Shown: positions 20,899-22,368, counted from the stretch's first letter. The stretch is DNA of 64,000 nucleotides from Escherichia coli (GCF_003334405.1 NZ_QOWM01000006.1); one strand, 5' to 3'. Notes: generated by a model not told the origin, from the sequence alone. Made by a program: numbers and translations.

Positions 20899-20943
20899 AG
20901 AACACAGCAATTTTGCGTTATCTGTTAATCGAGACTGAAATAC

Positions 20944-22368
20944 ATGAAAAAAACCACATTAGCACTGAGTGCACTGGCTCTGAGTTTAGGTTTGGCGTTA
21001 TCTCCGCTCTCTGCAACGGCGGCTGAGACTTCTTCAGCAACGACAGCCCAGCAGATGCCAAGCCTTGCACCGATGCTCGAAAAGGTGATGCCTTCAGTGG
21101 TCAGCATTAACGTAGAAGGTAGCACAACCGTTAATACGCCGCGTATGCCGCGTAATTTCCAGCAGTTCTTCGGTGATGATTCTCCGTTCTGCCAGGAAGG
21201 TTCTCCGTTCCAGAGCTCTCCGTTCTGCCAGGGTGGCCAGGGCGGTAATGGTGGCGGCCAGCAACAGAAATTCATGGCGCTGGGTTCCGGCGTCATCATT
21301 GATGCCGATAAAGGCTATGTCGTCACCAACAACCACGTTGTTGATAACGCGACGGTCATTAAAGTTCAACTGAGCGATGGCCGTAAGTTCGACGCGAAGA
21401 TGGTTGGCAAAGATCCGCGCTCTGATATCGCGCTGATCCAAATCCAGAACCCGAAAAACCTGACCGCAATTAAGATGGCGGATTCTGATGCACTGCGCGT
21501 GGGTGATTACACCGTAGCGATTGGTAACCCGTTTGGTCTGGGCGAGACGGTAACTTCCGGGATTGTCTCTGCGCTGGGGCGTAGCGGCCTGAATGCCGAA
21601 AACTACGAAAACTTCATCCAGACCGATGCAGCGATCAACCGTGGTAACTCCGGTGGTGCGCTGGTTAACCTGAACGGCGAACTGATCGGTATCAACACCG
21701 CGATCCTCGCACCGGACGGCGGCAACATCGGTATCGGTTTTGCTATCCCGAGTAACATGGTGAAAAACCTGACCTCGCAGATGGTGGAATACGGCCAGGT
21801 GAAACGCGGTGAGCTGGGTATTATGGGGACTGAGCTGAACTCCGAACTGGCGAAAGCGATGAAAGTTGACGCCCAGCGCGGTGCTTTCGTAAGCCAGGTT
21901 CTGCCTAATTCCTCCGCTGCAAAAGCGGGCATTAAAGCGGGTGATGTGATCACCTCACTGAACGGTAAGCCGATCAGCAGCTTTGCCGCACTGCGTGCTC
22001 AGGTGGGTACTATGCCGGTAGGCAGCAAACTGACCCTGGGCTTACTGCGCGACGGTAAGCAGGTTAACGTGAACCTGGAACTGCAGCAGAGCAGCCAGAA
22101 TCAGGTTGATTCCAGCTCCATCTTCAACGGCATTGAAGGCGCTGAGATGAGCAACAAAGGCAAAGATCAGGGCGTGGTAGTGAACAACGTGAAAACGGGC
22201 ACTCCGGCTGCGCAGATCGGCCTGAAGAAAGGTGATGTGATTATTGGCGCGAACCAGCAGGCAGTGAAAAACATCGCTGAACTGCGTAAAGTTCTCGACA
22301 GCAAACCGTCTGTGCTGGCACTCAACATTCAGCGCGGCGACAGCACCATCTACCTGTTAATGCAGTAA
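20944..22368 (+). CDS. degP: Periplasmic serine endoprotease/chaperone DegP (HtrA)
   Basis: 474-aa ORF with signal peptide, trypsin-like catalytic GNSGGAL motif, two C-terminal PDZ domains; low-complexity Q/G-rich LA loop. Confidence 0.97.
   Translation: MKKTTLALSALALSLGLALSPLSATAAETSSATTAQQMPSLAPMLEKVMPSVVSINVEGSTTVNTPRMPRNFQQFFGDDSPFCQEGSPFQSSPFCQGGQGGNGGGQQQKFMALGSGVIIDADKGYVVTNNHVVDNATVIKVQLSDGRKFDAKMVGKDPRSDIALIQIQNPKNLTAIKMADSDALRVGDYTVAIGNPFGLGETVTSGIVSALGRSGLNAENYENFIQTDAAINRGNSGGALVNLNGELIGINTAILAPDGGNIGIGFAIPSNMVKNLTSQMVEYGQVKRGELGIMGTELNSELAKAMKVDAQRGAFVSQVLPNSSAAKAGIKAGDVITSLNGKPISSFAALRAQVGTMPVGSKLTLGLLRDGKQVNVNLELQQSSQNQVDSSSIFNGIEGAEMSNKGKDQGVVVNNVKTGTPAAQIGLKKGDVIIGANQQAVKNIAELRKVLDSKPSVLALNIQRGDSTIYLLMQ

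Follow-up and report, generated by a model that had tools for sequence, protein, structure and literature searches.

The distal part of the LA loop of Escherichia coli DegP contains a short peptide, SPFCQ, that occurs twice and is encoded each time by the same DNA. The question raised by this locus is what such a repeat records: whether its visibility at the DNA level reveals how the segment arose, as was proposed in an initial annotation that ascribed it to local duplication, or whether the identity of the copies has another history and other consequences. Our analysis leaves little doubt that the segment is the distal part of the E. coli DegP LA loop, and we hold with high confidence the overall explanation developed below, in which an ancient loop core is combined with slippage alleles in present-day E. 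coli.

Gene identity and architecture of the loop

The loop is encoded by an open reading frame of 474 codons plus stop on the plus strand, at positions 20,944-22,368 of the window, by which we mean the whole 64-kb stretch of DNA analysed. The product scored 935.4 bits on the curated DegP equivalog of NCBIfam (NF008189, cut-off 720) and remained below the cut-offs of the DegQ model (653 against 756) and of the DegS models (276-283 against 408 and 423), which identifies it as DegP within the HtrA/Do family; PDB DegP chains matched it with an E value of about 1e-287. The DNA is 100% identical to degP in many E. coli genomes, and a degP match was present in 5425 of 5426 complete genomes; one complete genome gave no match, and three matches were on plasmid-labelled records. 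The gene order is also that of degP carriers, with dgt upstream and a cdaR-type regulator downstream. The pre-protein residues H131, D161 and S236, which DegP, DegQ and DegS all share, become mature His105, Asp135 and Ser210 after subtraction of 26, and the cluster identical to the window protein has precomputed Pfam assignments to trypsin and PDZ families, which are listed twice for the allelic products; the catalytic triad and the two C-terminal PDZ domains of DegP are thus both present. The 26 residues subtracted are the signal peptide (20,944-21,021, plus strand), delimited by the PDB chains 1ky9 and 2zle, which start at query residue 27. Its length sets the offset between pre-protein and mature numbering and converts C83 and C95, the only cysteines of the 474-residue protein, to C57 and C69, in agreement with the literature.

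Conversion of published residue ranges by the codon table places the LA loop, mature residues 38-79 (PMC4339722; 36-81 in PMC4434178), at 21,133-21,258 on the plus strand. The segment under study, 21,175-21,267 in degP frame +1, encodes a 31-residue peptide, DDSPFCQEGSPFQSSPFCQGGQGGNGGGQQQ. The initial annotation had recognised the regulatory loop of DegP correctly, including its two cysteines in repeated SPFCQ units, and its limits of 21,178-21,275 covered the right loop, although they began one codon late and ran 8 nt past the end of the tract into K-F-(M).

Three short units, all on the plus strand, can be read in this peptide. Units 1 and 3 (S54-P55-F56-C57-Q58 and S66-P67-F68-C69-Q70), each extended by the first base of the next codon, form an exact 16-nt direct repeat, TCTCCGTTCTGCCAGG, at 21,181-21,196 and 21,217-21,232 (repeat search, 100% identity), so that the repeat is indeed visible in the DNA, as had been stated at the outset. 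Between them lies unit 2, S61-P62-F63-Q64 (21,202-21,213), which has no cysteine and uses the same TCT CCG TTC codons as the others, reading TCTCCGTTC-CAG. One 36-nt period (21,181-21,216, plus strand) encodes SPFCQEGSPFQS; rare natural alleles of E. coli, that of strain ETEC4079 and others in public data, have one such period more or less. The units are followed by a Gly/Gln-rich tract, GGQGGNGGGQQQ, at 21,232-21,267 on the plus strand, which forms the return limb of the loop. The two cysteines, with 11 residues between them and Pro-Phe flanks, have the arrangement of the Enterobacterales-type disulfide loop.

This repetition exceeds chance at both levels. The 16-nt pair is the sole exact direct repeat of at least 12 nt with a spacing of at most 100 nt in the window, and block shuffles of the window (n = 30) gave 0.2 such repeats of at least 12 nt and none of at least 16 nt. 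A repeated 5-mer within 12 residues occurred in 0.9% of DegP shuffles, and a non-homopolymer 3-mer present three times within 17 residues in 0.25%; with SPFCQ twice and SPF three times within 17 residues, the peptide is therefore repetitive beyond chance, as a duplicated segment would be. Given the peptide, the probability of identical codons in both SPFCQ copies is about 0.013 under the codon usage of the window, and about 0.05 by a hand estimate with the more biased usage of degP itself. With 7, 5 and 7 residues, the units are too short and too uneven for Tandem Repeats Finder, which reported nothing in degP.

Two other candidates at this position were rejected. Antisense reading frames over the loop (20,925-21,299 and 21,094-21,441, minus strand) were regarded as by-products of mechanical ORF listing, degP being the only gene annotated there in 5425 genomes. 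An RNA-level reason for the repeat was discarded in view of the folding of the loop region, which is no better than that of shuffles (z = 0.08), and of the Rfam search, which returned no family over the loop region. The only Rfam match nearby was HtrA_thermometer (RF02700; 20,904-20,949, plus strand, 77 bits against a gathering score of 52), which covers the degP 5' UTR through the start codon at 20,944 and is a known cis-regulatory RNA thermometer (Rfam). Downstream of the loop, a 13-nt inverted repeat in degP (21,321-21,349, plus strand; 85% complementary with a 3-nt gap, CGTCACCAACAAC / GTTGTTGATAACG) corresponds to VTNNHVVDN, the peptide around the catalytic His, and probably results simply from the Asn-Asn and Val-Val codons.

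The function of the loop has been described by Skorko-Glonek, Koper, Figaj and colleagues (PMC4339722) for the same protein, with the same residues and numbering, and their object is identical to the feature in the window. DsbA forms the C57-C69 disulfide (PMC4339722), and removal of this bond activates the protease (PMC4339722; bioRxiv 10.1101/2025.11.03.686187). In the resting hexamer, a subunit inserts its LA loop into the opposite trimer, with N45, Q47 and Q70 contacting loop L1' and with F56, F68 and C69 contacting hydrophobic residues of loop L2' of that trimer (PMC4339722). [quoted passage not shown] When the bond is reduced, or removed by C57A/C69A, residue 63 becomes exposed, the balance between oligomers changes and proteolysis increases (PMC4339722; bioRxiv 10.1101/2025.11.03.686187). 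Much of the loop is missing from all crystallographic and cryo-EM structures (PMC11642142).

According to this literature, the contacts at L1' and L2' and the hydrophobic cluster jointly hold the active site inactive, and the C57-C69 bond closes a 13-residue ring that stiffens the inhibitory plug; loss or reduction of the disulfide loosens the loop, favouring trimers and 12/24-mers and raising protease activity. The repeated S-P-F(-C-Q) units supply the contact residues of this plug, which explains the strong purifying selection acting on them. Autocleavage of DegP may occur after C69 and after Q82. Identification of the LA loop and its disulfide is thus correct, was already known, and in itself adds nothing new; the three-unit repeat, its behaviour at the DNA level and natural indel alleles are not mentioned in PMC4339722, and a literature search found nothing relevant on them.

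Paralogues and distribution across bacteria

The same residues in all HtrA-family paralogues would, according to the initial annotation, have indicated an ancestral rather than a duplicated segment. The family looks otherwise: DegQ is devoid of the cysteines, DegS of the loop, and about 140 of 150 HtrA representatives of the cysteine pair. DegP, DegQ and DegS have in common the protease fold and the catalytic residues. E. coli DegQ also resembles DegP in the FFGDD at the start of the loop and in the PF before LGSG; its loop reads only FFGDDLPDQPAQPFE, continuing after FFGDD with LPDQPAQPFE-GLGSG, and it is about 30 residues shorter, contains no cysteine and, unlike the DegP loop, has no Gly/Gln tract. 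DegS, aligned with both, has no loop extension at all.

A C-x11/12-C loop was found in about eight of the best 150 HtrA representatives clustered at 50% identity. The carriers that were looked up comprise two Buchnera aphidicola, beetle endosymbionts, Candidatus Dasytiphilus and one Neisseriaceae-labelled MAG, and the remaining representatives have shorter, cysteine-free loops, in many cases with '...DPFFRRFF...'. A degenerate DNA pattern for FFG[DE]xSPFCQ matched at least 120 loci in a sample without Morganellaceae and Budviciaceae; since the pattern requires an intact unit 1, its matches speak for the presence of the motif and not for its absence. All 120 listed matches were DegP loops, distributed over Enterobacteriaceae, Yersiniaceae, Erwiniaceae, Pectobacteriaceae and Hafniaceae, with Samsonia placed in Pectobacteriaceae according to NCBI.

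Of the residues that the pattern leaves free, G12, S13, P14, F15, P19, C21 and Q22 show little or no variation among these 120 listed species. The C-x11-C spacing is found in every one of the species, and Buchnera and other endosymbionts have it too. The matches listed have three units in every species. The hydrophobic residue of unit 3 (residue 20) varies, being F in 71, M in 39, L in 7 and I in 4 of the listed species, and a second SPFCQ in exact form is in essence confined to Enterobacteriaceae. The comparison shows a loop extension specific to the DegP lineage of Enterobacterales, with the three-unit core and the C-x11-C spacing conserved across at least five families and Buchnera; conservation of the loop in 'Enterobacteriaceae' and its absence elsewhere had already been reported (PMC4339722). 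Among 120 close homologues, the loop core is invariant and the Gly/Gln tract variable in length. This tract has 10-20 residues and 108 distinct sequences in the 120 listed Enterobacterales species (39% Gly, 20% Gln), and to judge from these sequences it behaves as a flexible linker, free to vary in length as well as in composition.

Some individual records deserve mention. In the Neisseriaceae-labelled MAG (GCA_017984955.1; P0136, L006:1501-2691), a 396-residue HtrA shares 53% identity with E. coli DegP, and its LA loop, APMCQSGAPFFNTPMCA, shows both the C-x11-C spacing and the arrangement in three units. Such a loop would not be expected outside Enterobacterales; convergence, gene transfer or an error in binning could account for it. 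The Buchnera aphidicola from Melaphis rhois (P0124, L004:1501-2940) carries SPL three times, a parallel change from Phe to Leu at three contact positions, and Buchnera of Artemisaphis (P0121, L002) carries SPF three times. Three Asn/Lys/Ile-rich sequences (P0133, P0135 and P0140), probably from endosymbionts, have long LA loops without the cysteine pair, which suggests that the disulfide was lost in some reduced genomes. A record labelled Enterobacter cancerogenus M004 (JRUP01000034.1; L075) has a DegP loop of Pantoea/Erwiniaceae type, SPMCQ...TQQQKFRALGSG, with core codons identical to those of Pantoea sp. alder81 (L098), and its genome label is probably wrong.

DNA identity between units and the origin of the segment

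Across 69 Enterobacteriaceae species, the two SPFCQ copies matched at 11-15 of 15 nt, with a mean of 13.22. When unit 3 was permuted among species, the mean was 13.18 +/- 0.08 of 15, indistinguishable from the value within genomes (P = 0.35), and complete identity (15/15) was found in 5 of the 69 species against 3.5 expected. The copies match at 13/15 in E. albertii and likewise in Salmonella enterica arizonae. Similarity at synonymous sites between units is thus not above the level set by codon usage, a result that is uninformative on an ancient event. Since identity within genomes equals the permuted expectation, the perfect match in E. coli is a lineage-specific synonymous coincidence; and since the three-unit peptide predates the split of the Enterobacterales families and Buchnera, where the copies differ synonymously, DNA identity is no evidence for the origin of the segment. 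The local duplication originally proposed consequently holds in one respect and fails in another: an ancient amplification is plausible, though unproven, and the DNA identity cited for it carries no weight. More generally, a repeat that is visible in the DNA is not by itself evidence for the origin of a peptide repeat, random synonymous drift being sufficient to give an E. coli-like match in about 5% of species (69 compared).

Our preferred reading, the simplest one and held with modest confidence, is that the loop core arose once, before the radiation of Enterobacterales, when a short S-P-F-x-Q unit beside an ancestral FFGDD was amplified locally in tandem. Synonymous sites would then have been randomised after the amplification, and a chance coincidence in the E. 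coli lineage would have yielded the perfect 16-nt repeat. All 360 serines at unit positions (360/360) use TCN codons, a result that is compatible with common descent of the units and is not significant, since chance alone would give it about 20% of the time. Lineages with one or two units were not found in a scan that favoured an intact unit 1.

A less probable explanation, which nevertheless has to be taken seriously, involves no duplication: the three Ser-Pro-hydrophobic motifs would have been acquired by independent substitution, converging on the Pro/Phe contacts of the lock. It would be consistent with the individual function of the P and F of every unit as contact residues (PMC4339722), and with the chance level of DNA similarity between units. 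Parallel replacements without homogenisation of the DNA also fit this explanation. The three SPL units of Buchnera from Melaphis rhois use different codons (TCC/TCT/TCA for the serines and TTG/TTG/TTA for the leucines), and units 1 and 3 of the Neisseriaceae-labelled MAG both read xPMC, again with differing codons; such parallel amino-acid changes imply joint selection on the units and not gene conversion. Convergence would nonetheless have to produce a degree of peptide repetition that is rare in shuffled DegP (the 0.9% and 0.25% given above), as well as a loop with a net gain of about 30 residues over DegQ, and insertions of this kind usually grow by tandem amplification. It would also have to do so at a site where duplication is seen today, in the form of +36-nt alleles. 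These indels within E. coli show that a duplication mechanism operates at the site, and not how the segment originated.

Very improbable, and largely refuted, is the view that a recent duplication, or gene conversion in the manner of concerted evolution, keeps the SPFCQ copies identical. The exact 16-nt identity in E. coli, with its conditional probability of about 0.01-0.05 given the peptide, would agree with this view, but a recent event is contradicted by the three units already present in five Enterobacterales families and Buchnera, and concerted evolution by the permutation results for units 1 and 3, by the mismatches in E. albertii and by the differing SPL codons of Melaphis rhois Buchnera. 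A possible sign of homogenisation is the sharing of identical SPF codons by units 1 and 2 in 17 of 69 species against 9.7 expected (P = 0.008), a statistic that ignores kinship among species; the excess may be due to relatedness among those sampled, and it is absent for units 1-3 and 2-3 in the same 69 Enterobacteriaceae species.

Natural loss and gain of one period in E. coli

Within E. coli, the copy number of the units varies only as rare alleles in which exactly one 36-nt period has been lost or gained. Among 40 E. coli genomes sampled across the identity ranking, the loop region measured exactly 151 nt in all but the one duplication carrier, ETEC4079, whose genome gave two matches to the region, and apart from this strain no change in the length of the Gly/Gln tract was observed. 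Even the most divergent of the E. coli alleles sampled retain both 16-nt copies unchanged, and of the close relatives in the sample E. coli alone has the perfect repeat. The degP of ETEC4079 is 1461 nt long and contains a perfect in-frame tandem duplication of the 36-nt period, with SPFCQEGSPFQS twice and three cysteines, in a DegP otherwise identical to the window protein. A corresponding deletion allele was predicted from this duplication and then found: its protein of 462 residues, reading FFGDDSPFCQGG... and containing one cysteine, has an exact counterpart in public E. coli data, as does the 486-residue protein of the duplication allele. A triple-copy allele (498 residues) was not present in the public protein collection searched.

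For the deletion allele, the public data contain 23 contigs, which derive from independent isolates and from gut metagenomes, as well as two NCBI isolate proteins; for the duplication allele, they contain 9 contigs, four NCBI isolate proteins and two complete chromosomes. Carrier runs include SRR32527772, SRR19442198 and SRR12183832, and the contigs of both alleles all show the normal dgt-degP-cdaR synteny. Outside the loop, carriers differ by up to 24 of 1323 nt, representing at least eight deletion haplotypes and at least four duplication haplotypes, and this spread over several distinct degP haplotypes implies that the -36 and +36 events recurred independently. For complete genomes, we used 36-nt junction queries, which leave the wild type without a 28-nt seed, longer junction queries being unable to separate the alleles. 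The duplication junction, whose query served as the positive control, was detected in 2 of 5426 complete genomes, both pig ETEC from one study, and the deletion junction (two 36-nt queries) in none of the 5426; the deletion allele is known from draft, Logan and metagenome assemblies. Both alleles are rare.

These results show that the 16-nt repeat mediates rare, recurrent in-frame events of -36 or +36 nt that leave one or three cysteines in the loop. Slippage between short direct repeats is an established source of deletions and duplications, and replication slippage is the probable mechanism here. The locus would in this respect resemble the classic lacI hot spots: exact 16-nt copies lie 36 nt apart, one period is gained or lost, and the junctions fall inside the repeat. 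It differs from them in that the degP events are in frame, alter the number of cysteines (1, 2 or 3) and the Pro-Phe contacts, and come from natural isolates instead of a mutation screen. No report of these degP alleles was found in the literature searched, and they represent a minor new observation, a small population-genetic footnote.

Sequencing or assembly artefacts are an unlikely source of the two alleles. The deletion junction is absent from the 5426 complete genomes and occurs only in short-read draft, Logan and metagenome assemblies, some of low coverage, as would be expected of an artefact; a count of zero is equally expected for an allele at a frequency of about 1e-4 or lower. Assembler k-mers are typically 21 or more. 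The 16-nt repeat is shorter than such k-mers (the names of the metagenome contigs indicate k = 119-141), so that graph collapse at the repeat would not be expected. The duplication, moreover, is present in complete chromosomes and isolate proteins, and the number of contigs, isolate proteins and haplotypes that carry the deletion, all in normal synteny, also argues against an artefact.

Removal of one period eliminates P62, F63 and one cysteine, and published results on delta-Cys and F63 variants suggest that the hexamer lock should be weakened, and basal activity raised, in the deletion variant. We consider it a speculative and rather doubtful extension of this prediction that the perfect repeat makes degP an in-frame mutational hot spot whose shortened and lengthened lock variants alter hexamer stability and redox control and may be selected in particular niches, such as that of a pig ETEC clone, instead of being mildly deleterious noise; if so, the shortened lock would have one cysteine and neither P62 nor F63, and the lengthened lock three cysteines. 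That the repeat is a contingency locus, a phase-variation switch toggling DegP activity, is scarcely credible: gain and loss are recurrent, in frame, repeat-mediated and located within a regulatory loop, but frequent reversible length change is not what was seen, with the duplication in 2 of 5426 genomes from a single pig ETEC study and the deletion in 0 of 5426, there are two copies only and no long array, sister species have no perfect repeat, and nothing indicates reversion or benefit of the variants. The natural alleles with 12 residues deleted or duplicated are ready-made variants for relating loop length, F63 and the number of cysteines to the balance between hexamer and active cage and to redox control.
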